A stretch of DNA of 64,000 nucleotides from Selenomonadaceae bacterium (GCA_017412925.1 JAFPVP010000095.1:9981-73980); one strand, 5' to 3'. Shown: positions 13,338 to 30,140, counted from the first letter of the stretch. Translations and numbers: made by a program. The notes: generated from the letters alone by a model not told the origin.

Positions 13338-16160
13338 TTACTGCTTAACAAGTTTTTCGTCGCTGACGGTGTAAGTTTCGCCGTTAATATTTATGTTTTC
13401 AAAGTATCCGCCGTCGAAAACGACTTTGCCGCCGCCCGAAATTGTAAGCGTGAGTTTGTTGTCGACAAATCCAGAATCACTGAACGTGCCGCCCTCCGAG
13501 CCGTCCTTATTGAGAATCTTCAACATGTCGCCGTCGCTTTCATAGTAATCCAAAATCGTATCGGTGCCTTCGCCTGGCTTATAAATGAAAATATCTGCGT
13601 CGCCGCCGCCGTCAAGATAATCATCGCCTGCGCCGCCCCAGAGAGTATCCTTGTCGTAACCACCAAAAATCCAATCAGCACCTGCGCCGCCCAATAAATA
13701 ATCATTTCCGGCGTGACCTTCCAGATAATCATCGCCTGCGCCGCCGTCGAGATAATCATTGTCATCTTGCCCCAAAAGCGTATCGTCGTTCGCGCCGCCG
13801 AATAAAGAATCTTTGCCGGCATCACCGCTGATTAAATCTGCGCCCGCGCCGCCGTTAATATAATCGTTGCCGTCGTCACCGTTAAGATAATCATCGCCCG
13901 CATTGCCGAGAAGGCTATCATTTCCTGCGCCGCCGCTTATCGTATCATTAGCTTTGCCGCCGCTTATGGAGTTTGCAAGCGTGTTGCCGGTAATTTCAAT
14001 GGCGGTCGTGCGTTTGGCGGCGTTGACAACTTTAACTTTAGAGCCGATAGTCAACGGAGATTCGGTTGCATTCGTTATTGCCAGCGTCGTAGTATTTGCG
14101 GGCGTTGCGGAATAAGTTTTGGTAGTTTCTTCGCCGTTCTCGTCAACGATTGTAATTTTCTTGCCCGTACCATTTTTAACGGTGAGCGTGCCGCTGCCAA
14201 CCGTAAAAACGACGTTTGAGCCGCTGATTGTTGATTTAGAAATCGCCGCGCTGAATTTAATTTTATCGCCCGCCGCATAGTCGCTGATAACGTCTTTGCC
14301 TGCCGTATAAACGAAAATATCTTTGCCGTCGCCGCCAGTGAGCGTGTCATTGCCTTTTCCGCCGTCCAAAACGTCTGCGCCGGCGTCACCCAAAAGTTTA
14401 TCGTTGCCCGCGTTGCCGAGAAGGGTATCATTGCCCGCCCCGCCGTGAATTATATCGTTTTTCGTGCCGCCGCTTATGGAATTTGCAAGAGTGTTGCCGA
14501 TAATTTCAATAGCTTTCGTGCGTTTGGTCGCGTTGACGACTTTTATCTTGGAGCCGATAGTCAGCGGCGATTCAGTCGAATTCGTAACGGTCAGCGTCGT
14601 TGATTCGGCGGAATAAGTTTTGGTAGTTTCTTCGCCGTTCTCGTCAACGATTGTAATTTTCTTGCCCTTGCCATTTTTAACGGTGAGCGTGCCGCTACCA
14701 ACCGTGAAAACGACGTTTGAGCCGCTGATTGTTGATTTAGAAATCGCCGCGCTGAATTTAATTTTATCTTCCGCCGAGTAGTCGCTGATAACGTCTTTTC
14801 CAGCCGTGTAAACGAAAATATCTTCGCCGTCGCCGCCAGTGAGCGTGTCATTGCCTTTTCCGCCGTTTAAAGTGTCGTTTCCTTTGCCGCCGTCGATTAA
14901 ATCGTTACCGGAGCCGCTTACGATTGAATTATTCTTGGCGTTGCCGATAATTGTAATGTCGTTCTTGAGTTTGGAGGCGTTGACGGTTTTAACGGTGCTT
15001 TCAAAGTCCGCCAAGTCGATTGTGTCGCCCTTAAATGCTGTCGAAGCCGTCAAGACCGTTTTATTTTTGTTATAACTTAGTCCTGCGGGTAGTTCGTCTT
15101 CATCGGGCAAGCCGTCCGAATAATTTTTGGCAAGATAGCGCAAAAATCCATAGCCAAGAGCTTGAGGATTCCCAGAATAACGAGAATCATCTTGGAATTC
15201 TGCTATGTCAAACAAGTAGCCGCCGCTGTCAAAGCCACCAACAATTTCACAAAGTCCGGCTCTAATTTCACTAGGAAGATTATAAGCGTAGCTAACATTA
15301 GATTTTATCGCCACTTCAGTTAGTGTTTGCAAAATGATTCTGTCGAGATAATTGCTGAAATATGTTGTATGGTCGGAGTAGTCTGTATGAGGAATATTTA
15401 ATTTTCCATAAGCACTTCCTGAAAAATTAATTCTACCATAAAAATTTGAGTAAATGGCTTTATTGCCTTCGAGCGTGCCGTTTTTGTCGTCGGCGGTCAT
15501 GTTATAAAGAATTCTAGGATTTATACACAACGTAACACTTGATGCGCGCCCCATATCATAACTAATGTTATTAATTGACGTTGCGTATGGATTATTATTA
15601 AAACCATCATCGAAGACAATGTTAATCTCGTTAATGGAGGCGCGACCGTCGGTAAAATTAATTCCGAGCGATTTATTGATAAGATCGAGTGATTCGGGAA
15701 TCCACCAATTATAAAGCGCACGAACGACAAGTTTTTGTTTCTCCAGATAAGTTTCGCCGCTGTAATTAAATTTTTCGCCGGCGTCAACGTCGCCTTTTTC
15801 GTTGTAAGTGATATTGACGGTCAATCCGTTCTTCGTGAAGGATTTGTACTGCGCGGCGGTGAGTTCTTTAGCTTTGGCGGTTTCCGGAACGATACTTTCG
15901 GCGGTTTTAGTAGTGGAGCCGCCCGCGTCCGAGCCGGTAATTGCGCCCGTGTCGGTGTTGTTTACGCGAATGCCGCATTTTTGCTCAAGAAAATCCTGCG
16001 TGCCCAAGCCGGACTTCGCTGCGTTGAATTTTTGCCTGAAAATGCCGTAACTGACTGCGCCGACGGATTTAAAAGCCTCATCAGCAGCGGCTTCGCCTTG
16101 CGCGGAAGTCTTTGTCAGTGTGTCGACAAATTTTTTGATAATGCCAACGGGTGTAGACAT
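13338..16160 (-). CDS. RTX-type calcium-binding repeat protein, paralog 1 (N-terminal ~370-aa non-RTX domain)
   Basis: 940 aa, AAGGAGA RBS, no Sec signal. Many GGxGxD nonapeptides ([24 protein letters not shown]...). Two ~167-aa internal repeats. The N-terminal domain is homologous to that of paralog 3. The C-terminal tail is related to the family tail and ends ...VSDEKLVKQ. Confidence 0.85.
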   Translation of the reverse strand: MSTPVGIIKKFVDTLTKTSAQGEAAADEAFKSVGAVSYGIFRQKFNAAKSGLGTQDFLEQKCGIRVNNTDTGAITGSDAGGSTTKTAESIVPETAKAKELTAAQYKSFTKNGLTVNITYNEKGDVDAGEKFNYSGETYLEKQKLVVRALYNWWIPESLDLINKSLGINFTDGRASINEINIVFDDGFNNNPYATSINNISYDMGRASSVTLCINPRILYNMTADDKNGTLEGNKAIYSNFYGRINFSGSAYGKLNIPHTDYSDHTTYFSNYLDRIILQTLTEVAIKSNVSYAYNLPSEIRAGLCEIVGGFDSGGYLFDIAEFQDDSRYSGNPQALGYGFLRYLAKNYSDGLPDEDELPAGLSYNKNKTVLTASTAFKGDTIDLADFESTVKTVNASKLKNDITIIGNAKNNSIVSGSGNDLIDGGKGNDTLNGGKGNDTLTGGDGEDIFVYTAGKDVISDYSAEDKIKFSAAISKSTISGSNVVFTVGSGTLTVKNGKGKKITIVDENGEETTKTYSAESTTLTVTNSTESPLTIGSKIKVVNATKRTKAIEIIGNTLANSISGGTKNDIIHGGAGNDTLLGNAGNDKLLGDAGADVLDGGKGNDTLTGGDGKDIFVYTAGKDVISDYAAGDKIKFSAAISKSTISGSNVVFTVGSGTLTVKNGTGKKITIVDENGEETTKTYSATPANTTTLAITNATESPLTIGSKVKVVNAAKRTTAIEITGNTLANSISGGKANDTISGGAGNDSLLGNAGDDYLNGDDGNDYINGGAGADLISGDAGKDSLFGGANDDTLLGQDDNDYLDGGAGDDYLEGHAGNDYLLGGAGADWIFGGYDKDTLWGGAGDDYLDGGGDADIFIYKPGEGTDTILDYYESDGDMLKILNKDGSEGGTFSDSGFVDNKLTLTISGGGKVVFDGGYFENININGETYTVSDEKLVKQ
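13960..14880. repeat. intragenic tandem duplication (two ~0.5-kb near-identical copies) inside RTX paralog 1
   Basis: Sequence blocks at about 13960-14375 and 14470-14880 align with an offset of 501-510 bp. For example GGAATAAGTTTTGGTAGTTTCTTCGCCGTTCTCGTCAACGATTGTAATTTTCTTGCCC occurs at 14109 and 14610. Confidence 0.85.
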
Positions 16161-16192
16161 AAAACCATCTCCTTAAACTTTTTACAAAAGTT

Positions 16193-16218
16193 ATTATACC
16201 TGTTTTTTTTTTTGACAA
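16193..16218 (-). promoter_or_regulatory. putative promoter of RTX paralog 1 with an A-run in the spacer
   Basis: Minus strand: TTGTCA (16218-16213), 14-nt spacer (A10 + CAGG), TATAAT (16198-16193). The spacer is sub-optimal as sequenced. Confidence 0.4.
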
Positions 16219-16241
16219 TTCCCCACCGCAAATTTTTTTGC

Positions 16242-16271
16242 AAAAAAAAATTTCCCGCCGCAATGACGGGA
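16242..16271 (-). terminator. intrinsic terminator of RTX paralog 2
   Basis: Minus strand: TCCCGTC-ATTGC-GGCGGGA hairpin followed by AAA and T9. Confidence 0.65.
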
Positions 16272-16294
16272 AAAAATTTTTTTCCGCGCAGATT

Positions 16295-19200
16295 TTATTG
16301 CTTTTTTAAAGTGGAGCCGCTGATTTTATACGTTTCGTCGTTTATGTGGAAAGTTTTGGCGGTGAAATCTTTAAGAGTGACGGAGCCGCCACTGACTTTG
16401 AAAGTAATCGTGCCTTTGGATTTATTGTAAGAGGTCGTGAAGTCCAATCCGTCAAGTGTCAACGTGTCCTTAGAATCGAAGCCGAAGATTATATCTTTGC
16501 CGTCGCCGCTGTTGTAAATGAAAATATCCGCGCCGGCGTCGCCCCAGAGCGAATCATTGCCCGCGCCGCCAATGAGCGTGTCATTTCCTGCGTCGCCGTA
16601 AAGTTTATCATTGCCCGCGTTGCCGATGATTGAATCGTTGCCCGCCGCGCCATAGATCGTATCGGCTTTCGTGCCGCCGCTAATTATATTGTCAAGCGCG
16701 TTGCCCGTGATTTTAATGCCCTTTTTGAGCGCGGAGGCGTCGATAATTTTTGTTGTCAAATCAACGGTTACGGGCGAGGAAGTTTTACTTGTTACAATCA
16801 AACGCTTTGTGCCCGTGATGTTGAGCTTGTCCGAGTCAGCCGCACCGACCAAAGTTATCTTGCCCTTGCCGACCGTGACGATAATATTTTTGTTACTTGT
16901 CGTTGTCGAATAATAATCGCCCGAAACTGCAAGCGTCGAGGTCTTGTCGAAACCGTAAATAATATCGTTGCCGTCGCCCGACTTGTAATTAATCAAATTG
17001 TTCGCGCTCTCAAGTGAGATGCGATCATTGCCTTTGCCGCCCGTTATCGTCGCCGCCGTGCCGAAGACGCTGATTGTATCGTTGCCCTTGCCGCCGTCGA
17101 TTAAATTGTTCGCGGAGTTTGAGTTGCCGTAAATATAATCGTTACCGTCGCCGCCGAGAATGGTCGCATATTCTGCGCGGCTGTAAACGGAATCATTTCC
17201 CGCGCCGCCGTTTATTGAAGTTTTCGCGCCGCTGTTGGTAATGTAATCATTTCCTTTGTTTGCGTTGATTTTTACGGAGCCGGTTGCGTTCTCAATGTAA
17301 TCATCTTTTGTCGTGCCCTTGACGAGGGAGGAGCCGTCCCGGTTGCGGATAATGTTCCAAGTTTTATTAACGTCACTTATCGACGAAACGACATTAACTT
17401 TTTCCGCTCCGTAATCCGTCAACGTCAACTTTTTATTGTTGCTGAGCTTGAGGGTAATTTTATCGTTTGAACGCGAGGTAGCTTTTACTTTGAGCGAGCC
17501 GAGGACGATTGTATCGATTGCGTCAAAGCCGTTGAGTGTGTCGTTGCCCGCGCTGTAGACATAAGCCGTGCCGATACCTTCCTGCTTTGCAACATAATCA
17601 TTGCCCGTGCCGCCCGCAATCGTGTTGTAATCGCCGTAAGAGAAGACAGAATCATTGCCAGCCCCGCCGACGATTGAGGAATTCGCGCCGTTGTTGGTAA
17701 TGGAGTCATTGCCTTTGCCGCCGTCAATCACAGATTTTAATCCGTTGCTCGTGACAGTATCGTTATCGTCGCCGCCTTTGATTGTAACTTTCGAGCCGGC
17801 ACTGTAAATATAATTTTTCCCTGCGCCGCTGTTGATTGAAACGTTGCTGCCCGTGTTGGTGATTGAGTCGTTGCCCGCGCCGCCGTTCAATGTCACGTTG
17901 GATTCGCTGTTTACAATGGAATCGTTACCTTTGCCCGCGCTTATATTGAGTTTCTTTAACTTCGCCGCGCCGACTAAAGTTATCTTCCCGTCGCCGACCG
18001 TGATAATTAAATCGTCGCCGCTCTTGCTCTGAATGTAGGTGCCTTTGCCGCCGTCGATTTGGAGCGTCGAGGTCGTGTTGAAACCTTGAATAATGTCGTT
18101 GCCGTCGCCCGTCGTGTACTTGAATAAAACTTTCGAGCCGCCATTAGTAATGTAATCGTTGCCCGTGCCGGCGGTGATTGTGACTTTGGAGCCGCTGTTA
18201 GAAATGGTATCGTCACCTGCGCCCGCAGTGATTGTTGCATTTTCACCGTCGTAAGAGTTGGAAATATAATCGTTGCCCGCGCCGCTGTCGAGTTTTGCCT
18301 TTGTGCCCTCGTTGACGATTGAGTCGTTGCCGTCGCCGACGAGGATTTTTGCGCCGCTTCCCTTGTTATCAACAGAATCATTGCCCGCCCCGCCGACGAT
18401 TGAGACGTTCGCGCCGCTGTTAGTAATGTGGTCATCGTCTGCGCCGCCGTTTATCGTAACTTTTTGAGCGTCTTTGTTGATGATTATATCTTTACCTGCG
18501 CCGCCGTCAATTAAAGCTGTTGCGCCGCTGTTGCTGATTGAATCGTTGTCTGCCCCGCCGTTGATTGTCGAACTTGCGCCGCTGTTGCTAACGGTATCAT
18601 TGCCCGCGCCGCCATTGATTAAAACTTTCGAGCCGCTGTTGATAATTTTATCGTCGCCGTCGCCCGCGTCGAGTGTCGAATTCGTGCCGCTGTTTTTAAT
18701 TGAGTCGTTGCCCGCGCCGCTGACGATTGAGACGTTCGCGCCGCTGTTGCTAATTGTATCTTTGCCCGTGCCGCCGATAATGCTAACTTTTTTGCCGCCA
18801 GCGTTCGTGATTAAATTATCTCCGTTGCCGCCGTCAAGTGTCGAAGTCGCGCCGCTGTTGATTATGGTGTCGTTGTCGTCGCCGCCGCTGATTGAAACTT
18901 TGATGCCGCTGTTGCTGATTGAATCATTTCCGCCGCTACCGCTGATTGAGACGTTATCCGCATCGTTGAGCACGGTATCATTGCCCGCGCCGCCGACGAT
19001 TGTTTCTTGCGAGGAGTTGTTCTGGACATAATCGCCGTTATCGCTCAAATACGTTACGACCCTTTTGAATATCCCGTTAATGCTCACGGAAGGCAAAGAC
19101 GCCGCGCCGAGCAGAGTTATCTTGCTGTCGCCGACCGTTACGAAGATGTCATTACCGCTCGTCCGCCTAGCATAAGTGCCGGTGCCGTCGCCGATTACAA

Positions 19201-20473
19201 GGATTGCGCTTTCGTTAAAGCCTTCGATAGTGTCGTTACCGTCGCCCGTCGTATACTTGAACAGAACTTTTTCGCCGTCGTAGTTGCGAATGTAATCATC
19301 ACCTGCGCCGCTTTCGATTGTAGCTCTTTCATTCCATTGGTTAATGATTGTATCATTGCCCGCGCCGCCGACGATTGACGAGCTGTCGCCGCCGTAGCCG
19401 TTGTCAATGTAATCATCACCCGCGCCCGAATTAATTGTAGCTTTAGAACCGCCGTTGCTGATTGAGTCGTTGCCTGCGCCGCCATTGATTGACATGTTCG
19501 AGCCGGCGTCATGAGTACCTCCGTCGTAAAAGCCATTTTCGATCGTGTCGTTGCCGTCCCCGCCGTCGACTATAGAGTTATCGCCGCTGTGGTAAATTAA
19601 ATCATTACCCGCGCCGCCATTTATTGAAACTTGCGAGCCTTCGTTATAGATATAATCGTTACCGTCGCTGGCGTTGATTGAAACGTTTTCGCCGCCGTCG
19701 TTGCGAATGGAATCGTCGCCCGCGCCACCGTCGATTGTAACTTTTGAGCCGCCGCTGTTTTTAATGGAATCATTGCCCGCACCGCTAACGATTGACGAGT
19801 TTTCGCCTTCGTTTTCAATAGTGTCTGCGCCGTCGCCGCCAAGGAGCGTCGCAAAGTCGCTTTCGTATCTGTTAAATATGTAGTCATTGCCGTCGCCACT
19901 ATCGACTAAGCTGTTCTTGCCTTCGTTCCAAATGGAATCATTGCCCGCACCGCTGACGATTGACGAGTTTTCGCCGCCGTTTTCAATGGTATCGTTGCCT
20001 TCGCCGCCGTCGATTAAGCTGTTCTCGCCTTCCCAGCGGTTGTAAATGTAATCATCGCCCGCGCCCGCCTCGATTGAAACGTTCGAGCCGGCGTCGTAAG
20101 AGTAAGCGTCGTAGGAGCCGTTTTTAATCGTGTCGTCACCGTCGCCTCCGACGAGCAGAGCATAGTCGCCCTTCTCGTTTTCAATGTTGTCGTTGTCCGC
20201 GCCGCCGTAAATTTGAACATAAGCCGCCTCATCATTCCAGAAGGAGCCGTTGCCGCGCATAATCCTGTTGTCGCCCGAAATGATAATGTCGTCGCCTTCT
20301 TCAGGGTTGCCGTCCTCGTCGTAGTTGATCGTGTATCCGATGACGAGTTCCTTGTAATTGAAATTGCTTGGCGCGTAATAACGCTCAGTTGTCGAGTCAT
20401 TGAAAGTCTTTGTGCCCGTCGTGAATTCATAAGTAGCCGAGAACCTTTGGAGATTAAACGTGAACACCTTCAT
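16295..20473 (-). CDS. giant RTX-like calcium-binding repeat protein, paralog 2
   Basis: 1392 aa from ATG 20473 (AAGGAGAGG RBS 6 nt upstream; the ORF-track start at 20521 has none). Long arrays of ~19-aa units of the type xVSI(N/D)GGAGND(S/T/Y)IxNxGxx. Three GDGND-I-x-GF...ITL(V/L)GAA modules. Family C-terminal tail ...TFHINDETYKISGSTLKKQ. No Sec signal. Confidence 0.85.
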   Translation of the reverse strand: MKVFTFNLQRFSATYEFTTGTKTFNDSTTERYYAPSNFNYKELVIGYTINYDEDGNPEEGDDIIISGDNRIMRGNGSFWNDEAAYVQIYGGADNDNIENEKGDYALLVGGDGDDTIKNGSYDAYSYDAGSNVSIEAGAGDDYIYNRWEGENSLIDGGEGNDTIENGGENSSIVSGAGNDSIWNEGKNSLVDSGDGNDYIFNRYESDFATLLGGDGADTIENEGENSSIVSGAGNDSIKNSGGSKVTIDGGAGDDSIRNDGGENVSINASDGNDYIYNEGSQVSINGGAGNDLIYHSGDNSIVDGGDGNDTIENGFYDGGTHDAGSNMSINGGAGNDSISNGGSKATINSGAGDDYIDNGYGGDSSSIVGGAGNDTIINQWNERATIESGAGDDYIRNYDGEKVLFKYTTGDGNDTIEGFNESAILVIGDGTGTYARRTSGNDIFVTVGDSKITLLGAASLPSVSINGIFKRVVTYLSDNGDYVQNNSSQETIVGGAGNDTVLNDADNVSISGSGGNDSISNSGIKVSISGGDDNDTIINSGATSTLDGGNGDNLITNAGGKKVSIIGGTGKDTISNSGANVSIVSGAGNDSIKNSGTNSTLDAGDGDDKIINSGSKVLINGGAGNDTVSNSGASSTINGGADNDSISNSGATALIDGGAGKDIIINKDAQKVTINGGADDDHITNSGANVSIVGGAGNDSVDNKGSGAKILVGDGNDSIVNEGTKAKLDSGAGNDYISNSYDGENATITAGAGDDTISNSGSKVTITAGTGNDYITNGGSKVLFKYTTGDGNDIIQGFNTTSTLQIDGGKGTYIQSKSGDDLIITVGDGKITLVGAAKLKKLNISAGKGNDSIVNSESNVTLNGGAGNDSITNTGSNVSINSGAGKNYIYSAGSKVTIKGGDDNDTVTSNGLKSVIDGGKGNDSITNNGANSSIVGGAGNDSVFSYGDYNTIAGGTGNDYVAKQEGIGTAYVYSAGNDTLNGFDAIDTIVLGSLKVKATSRSNDKITLKLSNNKKLTLTDYGAEKVNVVSSISDVNKTWNIIRNRDGSSLVKGTTKDDYIENATGSVKINANKGNDYITNSGAKTSINGGAGNDSVYSRAEYATILGGDGNDYIYGNSNSANNLIDGGKGNDTISVFGTAATITGGKGNDRISLESANNLINYKSGDGNDIIYGFDKTSTLAVSGDYYSTTTSNKNIIVTVGKGKITLVGAADSDKLNITGTKRLIVTSKTSSPVTVDLTTKIIDASALKKGIKITGNALDNIISGGTKADTIYGAAGNDSIIGNAGNDKLYGDAGNDTLIGGAGNDSLWGDAGADIFIYNSGDGKDIIFGFDSKDTLTLDGLDFTTSYNKSKGTITFKVSGGSVTLKDFTAKTFHINDETYKISGSTLKKQ

Positions 20474-20519: not shown

Positions 20520-20549
20520 ATTATAGTAATTGTTTTTTTTTTTTGTCAA
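20520..20549 (-). promoter_or_regulatory. putative strong sigma70 promoter of RTX paralog 2 with an A-run in the spacer
   Basis: Minus strand: TTGACA (20549-20544), 18-nt spacer (A11 + CAATTAC), TATAAT (20525-20520). Confidence 0.55.
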
Positions 20550-20620: not shown

Positions 20621-22636
20621 TTATTGCTTAACGAGCTTTGAACCGCTGATTTTATACGTGTCGTCGTTTATGTTGAAAGTTTTGGCGGTAAAATCTTTCA
20701 GCGTTAAAGTTCCGTCTTCAAATTTAAACGTGACGGCAGAATTTTTATAAGTCGCCGTGAAATCAAGAGAATCAAGCGTCAAAGTGTCCTTTGCGTCGAA
20801 GCCGAAGATAATATCTTTGCCGGTGCCCGCCGAGTAAATGAAAACGTCCGCGCCGGCGTCGCCCCAGAGTGAATCATTGCCCGCGCCGCCGATAAGCGTA
20901 TCATTTCCCGCGCCGCCTTTGAGCGTGTCGCTACCAAGTCCGCCGTAAAGTTTATCGTTGCCCTTGTTGCCGATAATCGAATCGTTTCCGCCCTCGCCGT
21001 AAATTATATCGTTCTTGCTACCGCCCAAAATCACGTTGTCGAGCTTGTTGCCGACGATTTTAACCGCCGACGTGCGTTTAGAGGCGTCCGCCGTTCCAAT
21101 ATCCGCCGAAAGTGTCACGGGTGAAGTTGTTTTGTTATTAATCGTCAAAGTCGTCGCGCCGCTGACAACCGTCGTGTATTCCTTGCCTTTGGAATTAATC
21201 ATGCTGAGTTTTTTATCCGCGCCGTTTTTAACAGTCAACGTGCCCTTGCCGATAGTGAAGACGACATCGGAGCCGCTTAAAGTCGCCTTTGAAATCGCCG
21301 AGCCGACGGAAATTTTATCGCCCGCCGAATAATCGCTGATAACGTCCTTGCCCGCCGTGTAAATGAAAATATCGTTGCCTGCGCCGCCTTTTAACGTGTC
21401 ATTGCCCTTTCCGCCGTTCAAAGTGTCGTTTCCTTTGCCGCCGAGCAAATAATCGTTGCCCGCGCCGCTGATAATTGAATTTTCAAGCGCGTTGCCCGTG
21501 ATTTTTATATTTTTCTTGAGCGCGGAGGCTTTAACGTGCTTAACGGTGCTTTCAAAGTCCGCCAAATCCAGCGTGTCTTCCGTGTAGTCCGCCGTGACAG
21601 TCAAAACCGTTTTCTTTGCATTATAAGAGACGCCGTCGGGCACGCCGTCCGAATAATTTTTTGCGAGATAACGAAGACGAGTATACCCTGTAACTGAATT
21701 ATTGTTGTCCCTGTTGACAAAATCGCCATAGTTTTGCGAGGCGTCATCATAACCGCCGACGATTGCGCAAAGTCCCTCAAAAACATCTTTTGGCAAGTCT
21801 TCGAGATAGGCGATATTGGACTTCAAAGCAATTTCTGTAAAAGCCATTAAAAATAATCTGTCCAGATAGTTGGTAAATGGCGCAGTGTTGCCGTAACCTG
21901 TTGTCACATAAGGATAAGCCGTGCGATTGTAATATTGTTTACTGTCTAACGTTCCGTTTTTGTCGTTTTCGGTTAAATTATTGAGCAAATTGGCGTTGAG
22001 TATAATTTTAGCCTTGGAAAGGCGTCCCAAATCGTATTCAAAGTATATTGACATCGCGGTATGAATATTCATCGGATTCCAGTAGTCAAATTCTATGTCG
22101 ACTTCTTTGAGATTAGATGAATCGTCTGTAAAATTTATTCCGAGTGATTCGTTAATCAAGTCGACGGATTCGGGAATCCACCAATTATAAAGCGCACGAG
22201 TGACGAGTTTTTGTTTCGCGAGGAAATTTGCGCCGCTGTAGCCGAAATTTTCTCCGGCATCGACATCACTTTTCTCGACGTAGCTTATATTGAATTTTAA
22301 ACCGTTTTTCGTGAAGGAGTTGTATTGTGAGTTGGTGAGTTTTGTAGCCTTTGCGCTTTCGGGAACGATAGATTCGGCAGTTTTGGTAGTTTTACCACCG
22401 GCATCCGAACCTGTTATCGCACCTGTATCGGTATTAGTAATGCGAACGCCGCAATTTTGTTCGGCAAAATTTTGAGAAGCAACACCATAAGACGCATTGG
22501 TATATTTCTCTCTAAACACGTCATAACTGATTGCGCCCACAGCTTTAAAAGCCTCATCGGCAGCTTCTTCGCCGGTTTTTTTTGTTTCCACGAGAGTCTT
22601 GACGAATTTTTTGATAACTCCAACGGGTGTTGACAT
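20621..22636 (-). CDS. RTX-type calcium-binding repeat protein, paralog 3 (same N-terminal domain as paralog 1)
   Basis: 671 aa, AAGGAGA RBS. The N-terminus MSTPVGVIKKFV...NTDTGAITGSDAGG...ALYNWWIPESVDLINESLGINFTD aligns with paralog 1. RTX nonapeptides present. Family tail ...[19 protein letters not shown]. Confidence 0.85.
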   Translation of the reverse strand: MSTPVGVIKKFVKTLVETKKTGEEAADEAFKAVGAISYDVFREKYTNASYGVASQNFAEQNCGVRITNTDTGAITGSDAGGKTTKTAESIVPESAKATKLTNSQYNSFTKNGLKFNISYVEKSDVDAGENFGYSGANFLAKQKLVTRALYNWWIPESVDLINESLGINFTDDSSNLKEVDIEFDYWNPMNIHTAMSIYFEYDLGRLSKAKIILNANLLNNLTENDKNGTLDSKQYYNRTAYPYVTTGYGNTAPFTNYLDRLFLMAFTEIALKSNIAYLEDLPKDVFEGLCAIVGGYDDASQNYGDFVNRDNNNSVTGYTRLRYLAKNYSDGVPDGVSYNAKKTVLTVTADYTEDTLDLADFESTVKHVKASALKKNIKITGNALENSIISGAGNDYLLGGKGNDTLNGGKGNDTLKGGAGNDIFIYTAGKDVISDYSAGDKISVGSAISKATLSGSDVVFTIGKGTLTVKNGADKKLSMINSKGKEYTTVVSGATTLTINNKTTSPVTLSADIGTADASKRTSAVKIVGNKLDNVILGGSKNDIIYGEGGNDSIIGNKGNDKLYGGLGSDTLKGGAGNDTLIGGAGNDSLWGDAGADVFIYSAGTGKDIIFGFDAKDTLTLDSLDFTATYKNSAVTFKFEDGTLTLKDFTAKTFNINDDTYKISGSKLVKQ

Positions 22637-22811: not shown

Positions 22812-24755
22812 TTATTGTTTTTTGAAGCTTGAGCCGCTGATTTTATACGTTTCGTCGTTAATGTTAAAGGTTGTGGCTGTAAAATTCTTCAAAGTGATTG
22901 AACCGCTGCCAACCGTCAACGTAACAGCTCCATTTTTGTAAGCGGGCGTGAAATCGTCCATAATTTGTAAGAAATCGTCGTTGTCAAAGCCGAAAATAAC
23001 ATCTTTGCCGTCGCCGGTCATGTAAACAAAAGTATCTGCGCCCGCGTCGCCCCAAAGACTGTCATTTCCTTTGCCGCCCCAAATATTATCGTCGCCGTCG
23101 CCGCCGTAAATCTTATCGTTGCCAGCATTGCCGAGCAAATAATCATTTCCGCCCGCGCCGCGAATTGTATCGCCCTTCGAGCCGCCGTTTATCGTGTTTG
23201 CGATGTCGTTGCCGATAATTTCAACGGCGGTTTTGCGTTTCGAGGCATTTATAACTTTAATCGTGCTCCCCGCCGTGATTGGCGACTTTATATCGTCGGT
23301 TATGCTCAAAGTCGTGCCTCCAACAACCGTAACATAAGATTCTCCGTCAGAATCAGTCATTTTGAGCGTTTTTCCTTTGCCATCTTTGATAGTTAGGGTG
23401 CCTTTGCCGACTGTGAAGACAACATTAGAGCTTTTTACCGCAGATTTGGAGATTTCCGCGCCTAAAGCAATCGTATCGCCCGTTTCGTAGTCGGTGATCG
23501 TATCTTTTCCGCCCGTGTAGAAGAAAATATCGTTGCCCGCACCGCCCGTGAGCGTGTCATTGCCCGTTCCGCCCGCAAGTGAATCGTTTCCAGCACCGCC
23601 GAGGAGTTTATCATTGCCTTTTCCGCCGCTTAAAGTATCATTTCCAGCATCTCCCGCGAGTGAATCGTTGCCTGACTCGCCGAAAAGTTTATCGTTGCCC
23701 TTGCCGCCGCGAATTGTATCGTTATTTGAGCCGCCGTTTATCGTGTTTGCGATGTTATTGCCGATTATTTGAATTGGAGTCGTGCGTTTCGTGGCATTTA
23801 TAACTTTTATCTCGTTTCCTGCCGTCACGGGCGATTTTGTCTTGTCATTTACGGTCAATTCGGTCTCTCCGCTGACAATCGTATCATATTCCTTGCCAGA
23901 CGAATTAATAATGCTCAATTTCTTGCCTTTGCCGTCTTTAACAGTCAAATTTCCATTGCCAATAGTAAAAATAACGTCCGAACCGCTTAAATTTGCCTTT
24001 GAAATCGCCGCGGAGAGCTTAATTTTGTCTTCGCCCGCCGAATAATCGCTGATAACGTCCTTTCCACCCGTATAAATGAAAATATCGTTGCCTGCGCCGC
24101 CTGTAAGTGAATCATTTCCAGCTCCGCCGGTCAGACTGTCGTTGCCTTTGCCGCCTTTAATCAAATCATTGCCGCTACCGCCGATTAAGTAATCATTGCC
24201 GCTGCCGCCGACGATTGAATTATTCAGCGCGTTGCCCGTGATTTTTATAGCTTTGGTACGTGAGGAAGCGTCGATTTTTTCAATATCGGAGTCGACAGTT
24301 ATTTTTGAAGGGTCTGCATTAGTAATTTTCAAAAAATACGGCGTATCCCATTCGCAAATGAAATAATCGCCGCTGAAGAAGTACCTGTCATTCCATTTAT
24401 CTATGAACTTTCCATTTCTGGGAACAATACATGCATAATTTTCTGCTCCACGTTCACCATGATTATTTGGCTCACCACTTGCCCAATTTGTGTATGTTAC
24501 GGCTTCGCCCGTTACCCAAGTCCAATTTCCTTCATGTTCGGCATCGCTAAATCCAATGTAATATATCTTGTCTTCATTTCGACTGAAAAGATAGCTAACG
24601 ATTGCATTATTCTCTTCAGAATCATTGATAACAGCGAGGTGCCCGCCAAGAGATTCGCAATAAGCTTCTGCCGCTTCCCAAGTATCGGCTACATTCGAGT
24701 AGACATAATATTTGTGTCCGTCGTAAACGAAGGCGTCGGAAGGAATTTTATTCAT
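22812..24755 (-). CDS. C-type-lectin-domain / RTX calcium-binding repeat fusion protein, paralog 4
   Basis: 647 aa. The N-terminal ~135 aa has CTLD hallmarks (WEAAEAYCESLGGHLAVINDSEEN...WTW..G....YTNWASGEPNN...ENYACI...WNDRYF...FICEW). The rest is RTX repeats plus modules shared with paralogs 1 and 3. Family tail ...TFNINDETYKISGSSFKKQ. Confidence 0.85.
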   Translation of the reverse strand: MNKIPSDAFVYDGHKYYVYSNVADTWEAAEAYCESLGGHLAVINDSEENNAIVSYLFSRNEDKIYYIGFSDAEHEGNWTWVTGEAVTYTNWASGEPNNHGERGAENYACIVPRNGKFIDKWNDRYFFSGDYFICEWDTPYFLKITNADPSKITVDSDIEKIDASSRTKAIKITGNALNNSIVGGSGNDYLIGGSGNDLIKGGKGNDSLTGGAGNDSLTGGAGNDIFIYTGGKDVISDYSAGEDKIKLSAAISKANLSGSDVIFTIGNGNLTVKDGKGKKLSIINSSGKEYDTIVSGETELTVNDKTKSPVTAGNEIKVINATKRTTPIQIIGNNIANTINGGSNNDTIRGGKGNDKLFGESGNDSLAGDAGNDTLSGGKGNDKLLGGAGNDSLAGGTGNDTLTGGAGNDIFFYTGGKDTITDYETGDTIALGAEISKSAVKSSNVVFTVGKGTLTIKDGKGKTLKMTDSDGESYVTVVGGTTLSITDDIKSPITAGSTIKVINASKRKTAVEIIGNDIANTINGGSKGDTIRGAGGNDYLLGNAGNDKIYGGDGDDNIWGGKGNDSLWGDAGADTFVYMTGDGKDVIFGFDNDDFLQIMDDFTPAYKNGAVTLTVGSGSITLKNFTATTFNINDETYKISGSSFKKQ

Positions 24756-24807
24756 AAAATCATCTCCTCTTCAAAATATTGTTATTGTTATTACTAAACT
24801 CAGCCAT

Positions 24808-24908: not shown

Positions 24909-24939
24909 ATTATCCCCCCCCCCAATGCCCCGTTGTCAA
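24909..24939 (-). promoter_or_regulatory. putative promoter of the lectin-RTX gene with a G-run in the spacer
   Basis: Minus strand: TTGACA (24939-24934), 19-nt spacer (ACGGGGCATT + G9), GATAAT (24914-24909). The C10 run on the + strand is at 24914-24923. Confidence 0.45.
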
Positions 24940-25046: not shown

Positions 25047-27014
25047 TTATTGCTTAACGAGCTTTGAACCGCTGATTTTATACGTGTCGCTGTTAATGTG
25101 GAAGGTCGTAGCGGTAAATTCTTTAAGAGTGACCGAACCACCGCTAACTTTGAACGTAATCGCGTCATTTTTACTGTTGTAAGACGCCGTGAAGGCTAAA
25201 TTATCAAAAGTGAGCGTGTCTCCGTCTTCAAAACCGTAAATTATATCCTTGCCGTCGCCTTTCGCGTAGTAAAAATTATCTTTTCCGTCGTCGCCCCATA
25301 AACTGTCATTTCCTGCGCCACCCCACAACGAATCTCTGCCCGTGCCGCCTTTTATGCAGTCATTTCCTACGCCGCCGAGTAAAATATCGCCGTCTGCGCC
25401 GCCGTCGAGCGTGTCATTGCCTTTTCCGCCAACTAAACTGTCGTTTCCAGCCTCGCCAAGCAATTTATCATTGCCATCGCTGCCGTCAATCGTATCATTG
25501 CCCGCTCCTCCGAGCAAATTATCATTTCCTTTGCCGCCGTTAATCGTATCGTTGCCTTTGTCGCCGTTTAAGCTGTCATTTCCCGCGCCGCCGACTAATG
25601 TATCGTCATCATCGCCGCCAGAAATCGTATCGTCGCCATTTCCGCCAACTAAACTGTCATAACCCTTGTCTCCGAGTAAAATATCGTCGTCATCGCCGCC
25701 GGAAAGCGTATCGTCGCCTTGTCCGCCGCTTAAACTGTCATTTCCCTCGTCGCCAATCAAAATATCGTCGCCAGTGTAGCCTGAAAGCGTGTCATTGCCT
25801 TCGCCGCCGTTTAAACTGTCATTTCCTGCGCCGCCAAGCAAAATATCGTTATCATCGCCGCCGTCTAGCGTATCATTGCCCGCTCCGCCGTTTAAACTGT
25901 CGTGATTCGTGCCGCCGAGCAAAATATCATTGCCCGCGCCGCCGGAAAGCGTATCTTTTCCGTCTCCGCCGTACAAACTATCGTTTCCGCCGTTTCCGAA
26001 CAGTTTATCGTTGCCAATTCCGCCCCAAAGCGTATCTTTAGCCTTGCCGCCGACTATAGAATTGTTTTGCTCGTTGCCTTTTATCTTGATTGCCTTCGTT
26101 CGAGCCGTTCCGTCGATTGTTACGATGTCCGAATTGACCGTTACGACAGATTTATCCGAGTTCGTGACGATTTTAAGCGCAGTTTCTGCTTTTTTGCTGA
26201 CAATGTTGACCTTCGACAAGTCAGCCGCGCCGATTAAAGTAATTTTTCCGTCTCCAACAGTGATAATAACATCATTACCGCTCTTAGTCGTTGATAAATT
26301 CGCACCAGAAATGCTAAGAGTCGAAGTTTCGTTAAAACCTTCGATTGAATCGTTGCCGTCGCCATTTTTATAGGTAAGTAAAGCCTCTCTGCCGTTTCCG
26401 TACAAAATAATTTGGTCGTCGCCCTTGCCGCCAGTGATAGTTGCTTTATTCGCTCCGTTTTTAATGACATCAGCACCGTTTCCGCCGTCGAGTGTCATAC
26501 AAGATGCCCAGCCGTTTGAAATTGTATCCGCTCCATCGCCGCCGTAAATCGCTGTCAGCGAGCTGTAACTGTAATAATTGACAATTAAATCGTAACTCGC
26601 GCCGCCGTATATCGTTACTTCCGCGCCTTGATTAGAAATAGTGTCTGCGCCGTCGCCGCCGTCAATTTTGCAGCGATAACCGTAGTTTGAAATGTTATCT
26701 TCGCCTTCGCCGCCATAAATTGAAGTTAGCGAGGCGGAACTTTGGTAGTTGTAGAGATAATCTTTTCCCGATTCGCCGTCAATTATAGTTTTTGCAGCGT
26801 AGTTTAAGATTTTATCTGCGCCGTCGCCGCCATAAACCGCACTAATCGAGCCGTTACTGTCGTTGCAAAGGAAATCATCGCCGGATTTGCCATTTATCGT
26901 TACTTTCACGCCGCCAGAACAATCAATACTCAACCAATCGCCATTAAAAATTGAATCATCGCTGTTTGTGCCGGCAAGCAATGTATTCGAGGCGGTATTT
27001 TCTATCGTCGCCAT
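25047..27014 (-). CDS. RTX-type calcium-binding repeat protein, paralog 5
   Basis: 655 aa, AAGGAGG RBS. N-terminus [20 protein letters not shown]. Dense GGxGNDxL / GGDDDD repeats. The C-terminal half is near-identical to paralog 6. Tail ...[19 protein letters not shown]. Confidence 0.85.
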
Positions 27015-27031
27015 GAATTTAGCCTCCTTAT

Positions 27032-27057
27032 AAAAAAATCCCGCCGATTTGACGGGA
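27032..27057 (-). terminator. intrinsic terminator (possibly leaky) between RTX paralogs 6 and 5
   Basis: Minus strand: TCCCGTC-AAATC-GGCGGGA followed by T7. It is followed at once by the RBS of paralog 5, with no separate promoter visible. Confidence 0.6.
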
Positions 27058-27079
27058 AAAAAAGTTTCAGTGCAGATTT

Positions 27080-28798
27080 TTATTGCTTAACGAGCTTTGA
27101 ACCGCTGATTTTGTACGTGTCGCTGTTAATGTTGAATGTTGTCGCGGTGAAATCTTTAAGAGTGACCGAACCACCGCTGACTTTGAATGTAATTGCGTCA
27201 TTTTTACTGTTGTAAGACGCCGTGAACGCGAGATTATCAAAAGTGAGCGTGTCTTTGCTGTCGAAGCCGAAAATAACGTCTTTGCCGTCGCCTTTTGCGT
27301 AGAAAAATTTATCCGCGCCGTCGTCGCCCCATAAACTGTCATTTCCTGCGCCGCCCCACAAAGAATCTTTGCCCGTTCCGCCTTTTATGCAGTCATTTCC
27401 CGCGCCGCCGACTAATTTATCGCTATCCGCGCCACCGTCGAGCATATCATTGCCTTTTCCGCCGTTTAAGCTGTCATTTCCCGCGCTTCCGAGCAAATTA
27501 TCATTTCCCGCGCCGCCGTCGAGCGTATCATTGCCTTTTCCGCCGTTTAAGCTGTCATTTCCCGCGCCGCCGAACAATTCATCATCATCATCGCCGCCGG
27601 AGAGCGTATCGTTGCCATTTCCGCCTACTAAACTGTCATAACCCTTGTCTCCGAGTAAAATATCGTCGTCATCGCCGCCAGAAATCGTATCGTCGCCTTG
27701 TCCGCCGCTCAAACTGTCATTTCCCTCGTCGCCAATCAAAATATCGTCGCCAGTGTAGCCTGAAAGCGTATCATCGCCCTCTCCGCCGTTTAAACTGTCA
27801 TTTCCTGCGCCGCCGAGTAAAATATCGTCGTCATCGCCGCCGTCGAGCGTGTCATTGCCGATTCCGCCGTTCAAACTGTCATCATTACTGCCTCCGAGCA
27901 GAAAATCATTGCCTTTTCCGCCGTCGAGCGTATCTTTTCCGTCTCCGCCGTACAAACTATCATTTCCAGCGTTTCCGAGCAAAATATCGTTGCCGACGCC
28001 GCCCCAAAGTGTATCTTTTCCGCTTCCGCCGCTTATCGAGTTCGCTAATTTGTTGCCTTTTATCTTGATTGCCTTAGTTCTGGCGGTCGCGTTGATTGTT
28101 ACCACCGAAGAATTGACCGTTACAAGCGCGGCGTCAGAATTTGTGACAGTTTTAAGCGCAGTTTCCGACGGAGTGCCCTTTATGTTGATAGAATAGTTGC
28201 TAGACGCGCCGACGAGCGTAATATTCCCCGTTCCGACCGTGACGATGACATTATCGCCGCTTTTTTTGGTTGCGTAGGTGCCGCTCGCGATTGAAAGCGT
28301 GTCATTGTCGTTGAAACCGTAAATTATATTCTTTCCGTCGCCGTCATTGTAAATAATTACGTTTTTATCGGCATTCGCGCCCAAACTTATTTGATTATTG
28401 CCCGCACCGGCGTTGATTGTAGCATTTTCACTTTCATTTATAATGGTATCCGAGCCGGATTCACCATTTATTTTAATATTTGTGCCTTCTGAACCTTCAT
28501 TATATATATAATCGTTACCTTCGCCGGCGTTTATCGTTACGTTATAGCCATTTGATGTGCTGTGAATTGAATCATTACCTTTTCCGCCATTTATTGTGAC
28601 ATTATCGGCTCCATTATAAATGTCATCGTTGCCATCACCGCCGTAGATTATAACTTTTTCTGCAGCAGAATAATTACTAACTTCATCATCGCCATTTGCA
28701 GCACTAATCGTGACGTTTGAGCCGTTATTTTCGATATAATCATCGCTACTCGTGCCTGCAACCAGAGTATTGTTATCCCAATTACTAAAATTAGCCAT
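27080..28798 (-). CDS. RTX-type calcium-binding repeat protein, paralog 6
   Basis: 572 aa from ATG 28798 (AGGAGG RBS; the ORF-track start at 28846 lies inside the Uma2 3' end). N-terminus [20 protein letters not shown]. Tail ...[19 protein letters not shown]. Confidence 0.85.
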
Positions 28799-28830: not shown

Positions 28831-29415
28831 TTATCTGTAACCCCACTTGAAAATATATTTTAGCGGTATTTTTAAGCCTTCGAGAGTTTTAACCGGCACT
28901 TCATGCTTAATTTCGGCTTTTTCCTCGTCCGTCAGCAACTCCAATTCTTTATCGTCGAAGAGAATATATTCATCATCAAGATAATATTTGCCTTCATGCA
29001 GAAAATAAACGCTAATTACCTTCATGTACGGGTCGATAATCCAATATTCGCTAACGCCTTGAGCCTCATAAATGTCTTTTTTAATAGTGAGGTCATTTTT
29101 GCGCGTAGATTTCGATAAAACTTCGACGATCATATCAGGAACTCCATAAATTCCTCTGAACCAGTCGATAATCGACGAATTTTTTTCCGTAACGACTGAC
29201 AAATCGGGCTTTAAAGTTGTACCGTCTGGAAAATGAACGTCGGTATTGTCAGAAAACACGTATCCGCTATCGTTTTCGTCCAAAAAGCTCCCGATAATCA
29301 TTCCTAGACGCATAATTACTCCACCGTGAGTGGGATTCGGTGCAGGTGCCATAATTTTTTTACCTCTGATGATTTCATAGGACGGATAAAGAAGTCGTTC
29401 ATTGATAACCTCCAT
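28831..29415 (-). CDS. Uma2-family (DUF820, PD-(D/E)XK) putative endonuclease
   Basis: ...PDLSVV...[39 protein letters not shown]... is the Uma2 core pattern. ATG 29415 preferred, with an AGGAAG RBS. Confidence 0.8.
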
Positions 29416-29427
29416 AAAAACCACTTC

Positions 29428-30009
29428 CTATTCAAAGTACCAGCCAAAAATATTTCTAATTTTGACCTTGAAGCCGTCCAAAACAGCAACTGGAATTTCA
29501 AATTGGACTTCAGCGCGTTCTTCATCAGTCATATTCTCTAAATCATTGTCTTTGTAGTTCTGATATACATTGTCGAGAAAATATTTGCCGTCGCGAAGAA
29601 GATAAACTTCAATGCTCTCGCTCCAAGGATTGATAAGCCAATATTCTTTGACACCGTTGCGCTCGTAAACGTCTTTTTTAATCGTCATGTCTCGTTTCAT
29701 GGTTGAACGGGAAAAAATTTCTGCAACCATATCTGGTACGCCATAAAAATTTTCATCTTCATTGTTGAAGACGATATTATCATTTGCCGCGCCGATAAAT
29801 ATAAAATCTGGGCGCAAAGTATTTCCGTCGGGGAGATTAACATCAAAGTTATCGGAAAATGACGAGCCAAGCTTGTTAATGAATGCATGATTGCCAATCG
29901 TGAACATTAATCTGCCTACAATTTTACCATGACGCTTAAAAGGACTCGGTGCCATAAATTTTTCCCCCTCGATAAGCTCATAATCGTCGCGAATATCGAA
30001 AGCGAGCAT
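29428..30009 (-). CDS. Uma2-family (DUF820, PD-(D/E)XK) putative endonuclease, tandem paralog
   Basis: ...RPDFIFI...GVPDMVAEIFSRSTMKRDMTIKKDVYERNGVKEYWLINP... AAGGAGG RBS. Confidence 0.8.
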   Translation of the reverse strand: MLAFDIRDDYELIEGEKFMAPSPFKRHGKIVGRLMFTIGNHAFINKLGSSFSDNFDVNLPDGNTLRPDFIFIGAANDNIVFNNEDENFYGVPDMVAEIFSRSTMKRDMTIKKDVYERNGVKEYWLINPWSESIEVYLLRDGKYFLDNVYQNYKDNDLENMTDEERAEVQFEIPVAVLDGFKVKIRNIFGWYFE

Positions 30010-30072
30010 AAAATCACCTCCTTAACTAAAAATCAACCGACATCGACAGAAATTTTTGCCATTCACACCTCC
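30010..30072 (-). promoter_or_regulatory. conserved 5' leader, copy 2 (upstream of the Uma2-Uma2-RTX operon)
   Basis: Minus strand: GGAGGTGTGAATGGCAAAAATTTCTGTCGATGTCGGTTGATTTTTAGTTAAGGAGGTGATTTT-ATG. Aligns with 24808-24868 through the start codon. Confidence 0.6.
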
Positions 30073-30112
30073 TCCGCGCCGAAAAACCAATGGAAACGAG
30101 ATTTTCACAACG

Positions 30113-30140
30113 ATTATACACTATCGCGCCGATTTATCAA
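30113..30140 (-). promoter_or_regulatory. putative sigma70 promoter of the Uma2-Uma2-RTX6(-RTX5) transcription unit
   Basis: Minus strand: TTGATA (30140-30135), 16-nt spacer, TATAAT (30118-30113). Confidence 0.5.

Follow-up and report, generated by a model that had tools for sequence, protein, structure and literature searches.

How RTX (repeats-in-toxin) proteins leave the cell when no dedicated exporter is encoded beside them is the question raised by a stretch of 64,000 nucleotides from a Selenomonadaceae bacterium (GCA_017412925.1, JAFPVP010000095.1:9981-73980; hereafter the window), in which six RTX genes, designated p1 to p6, stand in tandem next to the flagellar export gene flhA. The first-pass annotation of this DNA proposed a secreted or surface family with a C-terminal signal, recently expanding and gene-converting, inserted at the end of the flagellar export operon and having an open export route. 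The analysis described here makes it likely that the genes form a strain-variable array of Ca2+-binding RTX proteins exported by a conserved type I system unlinked to them. Since relatives with the same family of C-terminal tails carry a locus of HlyB/HlyD type, the export is most likely ordinary type I secretion by a system encoded elsewhere.

The window originates from a ruminant-gut diderm Firmicute of the family Selenomonadaceae, its closest protein and DNA matches all being metagenome-assembled genomes (MAGs) of rumen Selenomonadaceae and Quinella, and it encodes BamA, TamB, TolC and MlaDEF together with the flagellar export operon from FliL through FlhB and FlhA. Contigs nearly identical to it (99.3-99.97%) are present in several independent metagenome assemblies. 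The six genes were found at the annotated coordinates as intact, co-oriented open reading frames (ORFs) of the minus strand occupying 13338-28798 and comprising, from p1 to p6, 940, 1392, 671, 647, 655 and 572 codons (4877 in total), each with a Shine-Dalgarno site 7-10 nt 5' of its ATG. All six products are matched by the Pfam model PF00353 (HemolysinCabind) far above its threshold (73.6-278.9 bits against a cut-off of 23; E from 1e-20 to 6e-85), in line with the GGxGxD-type repeats described for every paralog at first reading. The proteins are acidic and cysteine-poor, and the annotated lack of Sec and Tat signals was reproduced in all six, with the top 10-residue Kyte-Doolittle score not exceeding 1.4 over the first 50 residues and no twin-arginine motif.

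The feature uniting these proteins is the C-terminal tail. In p2 (16298..16522), p3 (20624-20842), p4 (22815-23030), p5 (25050-25274) and p6 (27083-27307), all on the minus strand, it combines a cap module with a family-specific end of the form ...(V/K)K(Q/K); the five tails align over approximately 75 residues, terminating in ...TYKISGS(K/T/S)(L/F)(V/K)KQ, and score 125-136 bits with a tail hidden Markov model (HMM) over positions 1-73, the match ending at the last residue. The p1 tail (13341-13589, minus strand) reaches only 16 bits with the same HMM, its extreme end, ...ETYTVSDEKLVKQ, being kept, so that both the alignment and the HMM agree with the annotated common tail of paralogs 2-6 and its divergence in paralog 1. 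Identical DNA beyond the stop codon, CAATAAAA(A)TCTGC, was likewise recovered in p2-p6, whereas the terminator family ascribed to five genes turned out to follow only four of them: TCCCGTC-loop-GGCGGGA is located after p2 (16251-16273), p3 (20583-20602), p4 (22770-22792) and p6 (27039-27057), and the hairpins found by the terminator scan after p5 (24999-25022) and p1 differ. In other genomes the 3' flank AATCTGCGCGG..TCCCGTC-loop-GGCGGGA followed by a T run recurs after 26 of 97 tail genes. Tail-coding DNA is 67-73% identical between paralogs (88% for the p5/p6 pair), and identical tail residues are specified by identical codons in only 54-67% of cases, which indicates conservation at the protein level, by selection on the protein. 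Recent gene conversion of the tails, as originally suggested, is not supported at this level of nucleotide identity and was rejected, the p5/p6 duplication excepted.

The distribution of the tail was assessed by a genome scan for tail-coding stretches, taking one genome per species, and by an exhaustive tail-profile search over 1.84 billion representative proteins; a word-indexed search with the 88-aa tail gave 24 short contig-edge fragments only, and these two approaches were used instead. The scan gave 246 confirmed stretches, of which the best 80, used for taxonomy and loci, are all in ruminant Selenomonadaceae/Quinella MAGs. The profile matched 646 representative clusters at E<=1e-10, and in most of the best matches the top-scoring stretch covers the profile from end to end and extends to the last residue of the protein. 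Within the best-80 loci, tandem arrays of 2-4 tail genes are common, at least 21 tail ORFs were counted in one MAG (RGIG2729) and at least eight in Quinella 1Q5, and the encoded proteins range from approximately 250 to 2000 aa (from approximately 250 to more than 4000 aa overall). About 100 tails from other genomes give a terminal consensus -(V/K)-K-(K/Q), the conserved terminus amounting to 18-20 residues after the conserved cap. NCBIfam holds models of C-terminal target domains, including the VC_A0849 subclass (TIGR03661); none of the six proteins matched a type I secretion target-domain model of this collection at E<=0.1. Judged by these comparisons, the tail constitutes a separate family, which in the matches examined is confined to ruminant Selenomonadaceae/Quinella, and its strictly C-terminal conservation, along with the lack of a signal peptide, supports the initial proposal of a secreted or surface RTX family with a C-terminal signal.

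Within the window, tblastn with type I secretion components found only the nucleotide-binding domain of MlaF; this sole ATP-binding cassette (ABC) ATPase is located beside MlaD and MlaE, so that the annotated absence of an HlyB-type ABC exporter from the window holds. The TolC-family gene noticed earlier is indeed present (49289-50803), whereas the "orphan" membrane fusion protein (MFP) described with it (50805-51776) does not stand as a type I adaptor: it passes the model of resistance-nodulation-division (RND) adaptors, TIGR01730, and not the type I HlyD model. As a type I pair these two genes were rejected, the MFP being RND-type and adjacent to Mla genes, though TolC alone could take part. 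In the segment 49289-55736, TolC and the RND-type adaptor immediately precede MlaD, after which come a 171-aa ORF, a Fic-domain gene, MlaF and MlaE, with TamB and BamA adjoining; the pair has no adjacent inner-membrane pump, and a like pair of outer-membrane factor and MFP without a pump follows tail genes in two other loci (L025, L047). The neighborhoods of three p3 homologs (Quinella 3Q1, WOLF17 and RGIG6722) also contain no adjacent secretion genes.

A candidate for the missing component came from relatives. Screening 79 tail loci for ABC domains, and then collecting homologs of a truncated ABC gene in one of them (L094), revealed proteins of approximately 765 aa, 79-85% identical, composed of Peptidase_C39, ABC_membrane and ABC_tran domains and named type I secretion permease/ATPase by NCBI (Selenomonadaceae, Quinella). 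The locus encoding them comprises, in this order, genes for an ABC (711 aa), an MFP (451 aa) and a second ABC (765 aa), followed by those for two glycosyltransferases, NfeD, FloA and, on some contigs, flagellin; the ABC-MFP-ABC part is approximately 80-85% identical across Selenomonadaceae. Both ABCs pass the HlyB model TIGR01846 (731 and 847 bits against 725.55), and the MFP passes the HlyD model TIGR01843 (335 bits against 208.65). Thus the search for HlyB-type ABC/MFP pairs recommended at first annotation, when run on relatives with the same tail family, gave a conserved locus, and the export route no longer looks open. The C39 domains of the two ABCs have another residue in place of the catalytic Cys, the motif reading DTG and RTG; a C39-like domain of this non-catalytic kind is a mark of HlyB and other RTX exporters. 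The secretion locus (L099) and the tail genes of Quinella 1Q5 belong to one MAG. In Red_deer_mag_170 they share a single contig, the flhA-tail locus occupying 11-31 kb and the secretion locus, then flagellin and a tail gene, 82-102 kb, approximately 50 kb apart and on the side matching beyond the window's left end. From this we infer that the window's organism holds the ABC-MFP-ABC locus as well.

The order of genes in this locus resembles the four-component type I secretion system RtxB-RtxD-RtxE of the Vibrio cholerae MARTX toxin, reportedly described by Boardman and Satchell in 2004, in having two HlyB-family proteins around one of the HlyD family and an outer-membrane factor encoded elsewhere. 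Unlike the V. cholerae system, the relatives' locus is unlinked to its presumed substrates, is followed by two glycosyltransferase genes and would serve many mid-sized cargos, not one giant toxin. The glycosyltransferase genes, a GT4-type of 411 aa and a Glyco_trans_1_2 protein of 565 aa, are located directly 3' of the second ABC in every relative examined (12317-15260 in L096, 1913-4856 in L094, and in L097, L098 and L099), and their products might glycosylate the secreted cargo or flagellin. A survey of secretion systems published in 2016 listed pT4SS and T5SS (type IV and type V secretion systems) for Negativicutes and did not list type I secretion (PMC4793230). In our literature search, neither RTX proteins nor type I secretion turned up as the subject of a paper on Selenomonas or Quinella.

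Apart from the tail, the proteins are assembled from a limited set of parts. p1 (13338..16160, 940 aa) carries an inactive flagellinolysin-like N-domain, two units of an RTX block plus cap module, a long RTX block and the diverged tail (PF00353, E = 7.6e-56). In p2 (16295..20473, 1392 aa), beta-roll repeats broken by four cap modules precede canonical RTX repeats and the tail, the protein being matched by PF00353 and by an SMc04171-type repeat model; the repeats, like those in the N-terminal parts of p5 and p6, are 18-residue units of one canonical and one degenerate nonapeptide with a 54-nt period. p3 (20621..22636, 671 aa) joins an inactive flagellinolysin-like domain (residues 1 to approximately 345) to two RTX blocks, the first of them with a cap, and the tail, and p4 (22812..24755, 647 aa) has an N-terminal C-type lectin domain, two RTX-plus-cap units and the tail. 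p5 (25047..27014, 655 aa; PF00353, E = 2e-76) begins with degenerate beta-roll repeats and continues with one cap module, canonical RTX repeats in a long block, and the tail, an architecture shared by p6 (27080..28798, 572 aa; E = 6e-85). The two non-RTX modules initially assigned to p1/p3/p4 and to p2/p5/p6 were both recovered in these proteins with the tail HMM, the "DVISDY..." type at residues 449-507 and 616-674 of p1, 424-477 of p3 and 226-282 and 414-468 of p4, and the "GDGND.I.GF..." type at 405-454, 784-834, 971-1030 and 1163-1209 of p2, 214-261 of p5 and 149-197 of p6. The two module types share homology with the tail over its first 50-60 positions. Because they match the HMM only over positions 1 to approximately 55, the last 15-20 residues are peculiar to the C-terminus, and the leading two-thirds of the tail represent the same kind of element as the internal modules, a cap closing an RTX block.

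The AlphaFold2 (AF2) model of p3 (pLDDT 92) consists of an N-domain of helical/mixed character and, behind it, two beta-rolls that are each capped by a small beta-sandwich, with regular short strands across residues 355-600; a parallel beta-roll with a C-terminal capping structure is thus what the model predicts. Its Foldseek neighbors are all type-I-secreted RTX proteins, namely Pseudomonas MIS38 and Serratia lipases, RTX blocks IV-V of CyaA (TM score 0.65 on target for block V), serralysins and AlgE R-modules, AlgE4 included. The capping structure of CyaA block V is essential for its folding. With the classical substrates represented by these neighbors (the proteases serralysin, PrtC and AprA, the LipA lipases of Pseudomonas and Serratia, and the CyaA RTX blocks), the array shares GGxGxD beta-rolls with a capping structure, an uncleaved C-terminal signal region as predicted here, acidity, scarcity of cysteine and lack of an N-terminal signal peptide. 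It differs from them in that no curated family model of these substrates is reached, the passengers are different, the tail is a family of its own and the host is a diderm Firmicute. A second parallel is offered by the mannuronan epimerases AlgE1-7 of Azotobacter vinelandii, which are clustered, modular, type-I-secreted paralogs with shuffled A and R modules. Here too clustered paralogs consist of shuffled modules, the R-module is an RTX block with a cap, and the R-modules of AlgE4 and AlgE6 match the p3 model; unlike AlgE1-7, the array has no epimerase A-module, its passengers look non-enzymatic, and the family possesses conserved 5' promoter/leader and 3' tail/untranslated region (UTR) cassettes.

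Among the passengers the clearest is the C-type lectin domain of p4 (PF00059, 63.9 bits against a cut-off of 22.6; residues 24-135, nt 24351-24686). The N-terminal 345 or so residues of p1 and p3 are covered by no Pfam model and show a weak NCBIfam match to flagellinolysin, 43.8 and 35.6 bits, short of the cut-off of 205 of NF033876. Flagellinolysins are proteolytic flagellins (Eckhard et al., 2017; PMC5595980). Homologs of the p1/p3 domain include the metallopeptidase domain found in true flagellins inside their hypervariable region: two flagellins (P0061 and P0087), both with Flagellin_N, Flagellin_C and the motif AHEFTH, are matched with phmmer E-values of 1e-29 and 2e-27. Domains of this type are also N-terminal in many non-flagellin proteins, and 16 columns are invariant across 57 aligned N-domain sequences. 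The zinc-binding motif HExxH reads Q-T-L-T-E in p1 and M-A-F-T-E in p3, the latter also having no third ligand Glu, and is replaced in all 21 close homologs examined, whereas HExxH and EGxAELxHG are kept in 33 of 34 distant homologs aligned. Since the motif is replaced across the p1/p3 clade, the domain may be classified as a conserved pseudo-peptidase. In contrast to flagellinolysin, p1 and p3 thus have a replaced HExxH, no flagellin N/C domains (the Pfam scan gave no PF00669 or PF00700 match in any of the six proteins) and a fusion to RTX repeats. The AF2 model of the N-domain (pLDDT 90, pTM 0.90) has no significant neighbor in PDB (best E = 2.4), and a PDB sequence-profile search with the domain alignment gave matches to RTX and flagellin parts only. 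One 553-aa homolog (P0047) has an active flagellinolysin-type domain at its N-terminus, another, partial copy of it and a Flagellin_C domain, Flagellin_N being absent; this half-flagellin architecture hints that domains have moved between flagellins and secreted proteins within the group.

As for other NCBIfam toxin, protease and lipase models, none of the six proteins comes near their cut-offs, and a Pfam scan of 80 tail proteins gave, beyond RTX repeats, only one CAP domain and a few beta-helix matches. The passengers taken together, that is the dead domain of p1/p3, the lectin of p4 and the beta-rolls of p2, p5 and p6, suggest binding proteins rather than toxins or enzymes. Counts of NxS/T sequons vary from 15 to 52 per RTX protein.

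The position of the array relative to the flagellar operon needs revision. The flhA gene is transcribed from the plus strand (11128-13215), towards the RTX genes, and is separated from them by a bidirectional terminator (13291..13315, from the terminator scan) that serves both flhA and p1. Given this convergent arrangement, the array is outside the flhA operon, not inserted at its end; besides, its location recurs throughout the family. Different species share the block GT41-PFK-GH32-[tail gene(s)]-flhA, with differing content. At the GH32-flhA site a single tail gene is present in RGIG6722, Quinella 1Q5 and SRR1206671_bin.52, a 174-aa ORF with a full tail in Red_deer_mag_170, an array with two Uma2 genes interrupted by contig ends in RGIG2729, and six tail-RTX genes with two Uma2 genes in the window; p3 is the ortholog of the single flhA-adjacent gene of relatives (L014/L088/L092). 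A lineage 97% identical through flhA has no array there, small ORFs (one of them RTX-like) and an RND pump being found instead. Comparison of the flhA-downstream locus in related strains, as advised at first annotation, thus revealed variable gene number and content and no strict conservation, and one tail gene in relatives against six here marks the locus as accessory and expanded.

Strains also differ in protein length, p1 having 940, 1096, 1108 or 1109 aa and p6 572 or 545 aa, differences that are attributable to gain or loss of repeat units. Counterparts of p2, p3 and p5 in other species are 80-88% identical, some of them residing at other loci. Nucleotide identity is 84-88% over the 3' half for p5/p6 and approximately 86% for the internal p1 duplication, and by these values only those two events look recent, most paralogs appearing old. 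Of the "recently expanding" family described initially, expansion is therefore retained, while recency, given the 67-73% identity of tail DNA, does not apply to most paralogs.

Upstream of p6, two tandem co-oriented Uma2-family genes (PD-(D/E)XK nuclease-like; 28831..30009, minus strand; PF05685, E = 1e-27 and 6e-28) are preceded by a promoter-like site at 30113-30140 on the same strand. Because only 32 nt separate the Uma2 stop from the p6 start, p6 is probably co-transcribed with this pair; p5 begins approximately 25 nt beyond the p6 terminator. Uma2 genes are also located immediately upstream of, and co-oriented with, tail-RTX genes in four other Selenomonadaceae loci (L040, L057, L075 and L093), and a role for them in recombination at tail-RTX loci is speculation. 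Between the GH32 gene and the Uma2 promoter, at 30174-30442, there are approximately 11 copies of the 20-nt tandem unit ATTTTTGGCTGTGAAACGG and approximately three of a variant unit; they fall inside a 169-aa "ORF" (30114-30623) with no Pfam family match, the counterpart of which has 148 aa in one strain contig (L011), suggesting copy-number variation. Further along, the conserved block includes a giant 1463-aa protein (33492-37883) with GT2, TPR and GT41 (O-GlcNAc-transferase-like) domains, while GT41 genes and a FliB_C-domain gene adjoin the p3 homolog of one relative (L013). On the flagellar side, an ORF of 129/130 aa between flhB and flhA (10647-11039), matching no Pfam family, keeps its position in all strain contigs and several relatives.

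Recognizable promoters of sigma-70 type were found for p1-p4, all on the minus strand: TTGTCA-14-TATAAT with an A11 tract for p1 (16193-16218), TTGACA-18-TATAAT, matching in 12 of 12 positions and with an A12 tract in the spacer, for p2 (20520..20549), an extended -10 element, TGTATAAT, for p3 (22722-22729), and TTGACA-N19-GATAAT for p4 (24909..24939). The p2 -10 element at 20520-20525 excludes a longer ORF start at 20521. In the p4 promoter, written as TTGACA-ACGGGGCATT-G(8/9/10)-ATAAT, the spacer holds a G10 tract (24914-24923), which makes it a candidate for phase variation. Near-identical contigs assembled from other samples have G10, G9 or G8 at this place, giving spacers of 19, 18 and 17 bp, and three contigs differ from the window in the length of this tract alone over 205 nt; the A11/A12 tracts of the p1/p2 promoters did not vary in 6-7 strain contigs. 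The same poly-G cassette (G8 to G11) precedes nine tail genes in other species, most then having a leader of approximately 100 nt and a start of p5/p6 type, and G/C runs of at least 8 are found upstream of 10 of 78 tail genes versus 0 of 455 other ORFs (Fisher p = 2.7e-9). Tract-length polymorphism and recurrence of the cassette in other species suggest phase variation, the poly-G tract of p4 probably being the switch. Homopolymer-controlled phase-variable promoters are familiar from porA and opc of Neisseria meningitidis and vlp of Mycoplasma hyorhinis; as in them, the homopolymer between -35 and -10 sets the spacer length, differs between near-identical strains and drives a variable extracellular family, whereas here the host is a rumen commensal diderm Firmicute, the product is a predicted type I cargo and switching of p4 is deduced from the comparison of contigs.

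Between the poly-G promoter and the p4 start there is a mini-ORF of 15 codons, MAEFSNNNNNILKRR followed by a stop (24760..24807, minus strand). In orthologous cassettes the same ATGGC... start runs on into N-termini of p5/p6 type, so the mini-ORF is evidently the remnant 5' end of such a paralog, marking a passenger swap in which the lectin would have recombined into a p5/p6-type gene. The leader of approximately 100 nt behind the promoter (24810-24905, and in L040, L057, L065, L068 and L081), including AAGGAGGT, is conserved across species at the nucleotide level. It showed no convincing conserved RNA structure (-4.45 kcal/mol with an unfavorable covariation term) and no Rfam match, and may simply travel with the promoter cassette.

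These data fit a scheme in which the proteins would be built as serial units of an RTX block and a beta-sandwich cap, closed by the conserved cap and the 18-20-residue terminus, the latter acting as an uncleaved C-terminal signal for the conserved, unlinked type I secretion system. The exporter would be composed of two HlyB-type ABCs with non-catalytic C39-like domains flanking an HlyD-type adaptor, together with a TolC-family channel, and the repeats would fold upon binding of Ca2+ once exported. The passengers are then expected to serve extracellular or surface binding and not toxin or enzyme functions. The repertoire may vary by gene number, by copy number of repeat units and through passengers being swapped between the conserved cassettes at the 5' and 3' ends, and p4 probably also by slipped-strand changes of the poly-G tract setting the -35/-10 spacing. 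Several points weigh against this scheme. The secretion locus is assigned to this genome from relatives and conserved gene order; it contains two glycosyltransferase genes, lies near a flagellin gene and might serve other cargo. Secretion, localization and expression of the proteins are all deduced from sequence, the signal function of the tail, which matched no curated secretion-target model, is argued from its position and conservation, and the binding function of the passengers is read from domain type. Finally, homopolymer lengths can be miscalled in short-read metagenome assemblies, which bears on the G8/G9/G10 series.

Other explanations were weighed against the same observations. The proteins might be type-I-secreted and yet cell-bound as a structural coat, either an S-layer-like lattice or a decoration of the outer membrane or flagella, like RsaA in Caulobacter, instead of working as separate adhesins or lectins. 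The many paralogs per genome, the strong, near-consensus promoters of p1 and p2 and the recurrence of tail genes near flagellar genes (flhA here and in relatives, flagellin adjoining a tail gene in L094) would agree with such a coat, and some Quinella cells were reported to be covered with granular surface material (PMC9585023). We nevertheless regard it as unlikely: domain scans gave no S-layer-type or LPS-anchoring (lipopolysaccharide-anchoring) domain, sizes from approximately 250 to more than 4000 aa and the diversity of passengers are too heterogeneous for one lattice protein, and the flagellar neighborhood reflects a single conserved syntenic block, not repeated independent association. 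Adjacency to flhA in several species and homology of the p1/p3 N-domain to a hypervariable-region domain of true flagellins bring up export by the flagellar type III apparatus, which is extremely improbable, as the first residues of p1/p3 belong to a globular domain that in flagellins is internal, at about residue 155, and the conserved element is C-terminal, with a matching HlyB/HlyD system in relatives. Flagellar export combined with flagellar co-regulation was rejected because of the missing flagellin terminal domains, the convergence of these genes, with their sigma-70-type promoters, upon flhA and the lack of any sigma-28 motif near them, the window having two matches, both elsewhere, against 0.8 expected.

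That the array encodes RTX cytolysins or bacteriocin-like toxins against rumen competitors, protozoa or host cells is very unlikely. Partial matches to the RTX-hemolysin model NF033943 do exist, and variable multi-copy arrays are typical of toxin repertoires too, but the matches reach 106-210 bits against a cut-off of 1000 and concern the repeat region only, the ORFs of the window that were scanned around the array include no RtxC-type acyltransferase, domain scans gave neither a pore-forming nor any other toxin domain, and the passengers that can be recognized comprise a lectin and an inactive peptidase. Decaying repetitive DNA or an assembly artefact without functional proteins, suggested by the highly repetitive character of the region and by related MAG contigs often breaking inside such arrays, is scarcely credible given that the same six intact ORFs occur at 99.7-99.97% identity in independently assembled contigs, three of which span all six, that Shine-Dalgarno sites and terminators accompany six genes of six, and that the tail protein is conserved despite diverged DNA. 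Beyond export by the unlinked type I system, one may consider, as a possible though not probable extension, that tail-RTX genes constitute a programmed variation system for type I cargo. The poly-G promoter, the leader of approximately 100 nt and the first 12 or so codons would then act as the 5' cassette and the tail, 3' UTR and terminator as the 3' cassette, between which passengers are swapped by recombination, possibly helped by Uma2 and accompanied by poly-G switching and possible glycosylation of the cargo. The remnant start codons upstream of p4 would be one trace of swapping, and the system would be a counterpart, in a commensal diderm Firmicute, of Mycoplasma vlp or Neisseria opa/por.

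The apparent puzzle of RTX proteins without an exporter is thus largely explained by a secretion locus encoded elsewhere in relatives. What appears new is a large, lineage-specific family of probable type I cargo with binding-type passengers, the mechanism of export most likely being ordinary and the variant features being the fusion with a pseudo-flagellinolysin, the conservation of the cassettes at both ends and an exporter that has two ABCs and is accompanied by glycosyltransferases. The comparisons provide sequence-level evidence for type I secretion operating in Negativicutes, and they document a case in which a peptidase domain also found embedded in flagellins has been turned, in an inactive version, into the passenger of presumably secreted RTX proteins. 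For abundant rumen bacteria, including uncultured Quinella, they outline an uncharacterized cargo family defined by one C-terminal tag, which could be used to predict the secretomes of these organisms and possibly help to engineer secretion. As candidate phase-variable and strain-variable extracellular proteins of a gut commensal, the members of this family may bear on adhesion to feed particles, interactions with protozoa and phages, and coexistence of strains.

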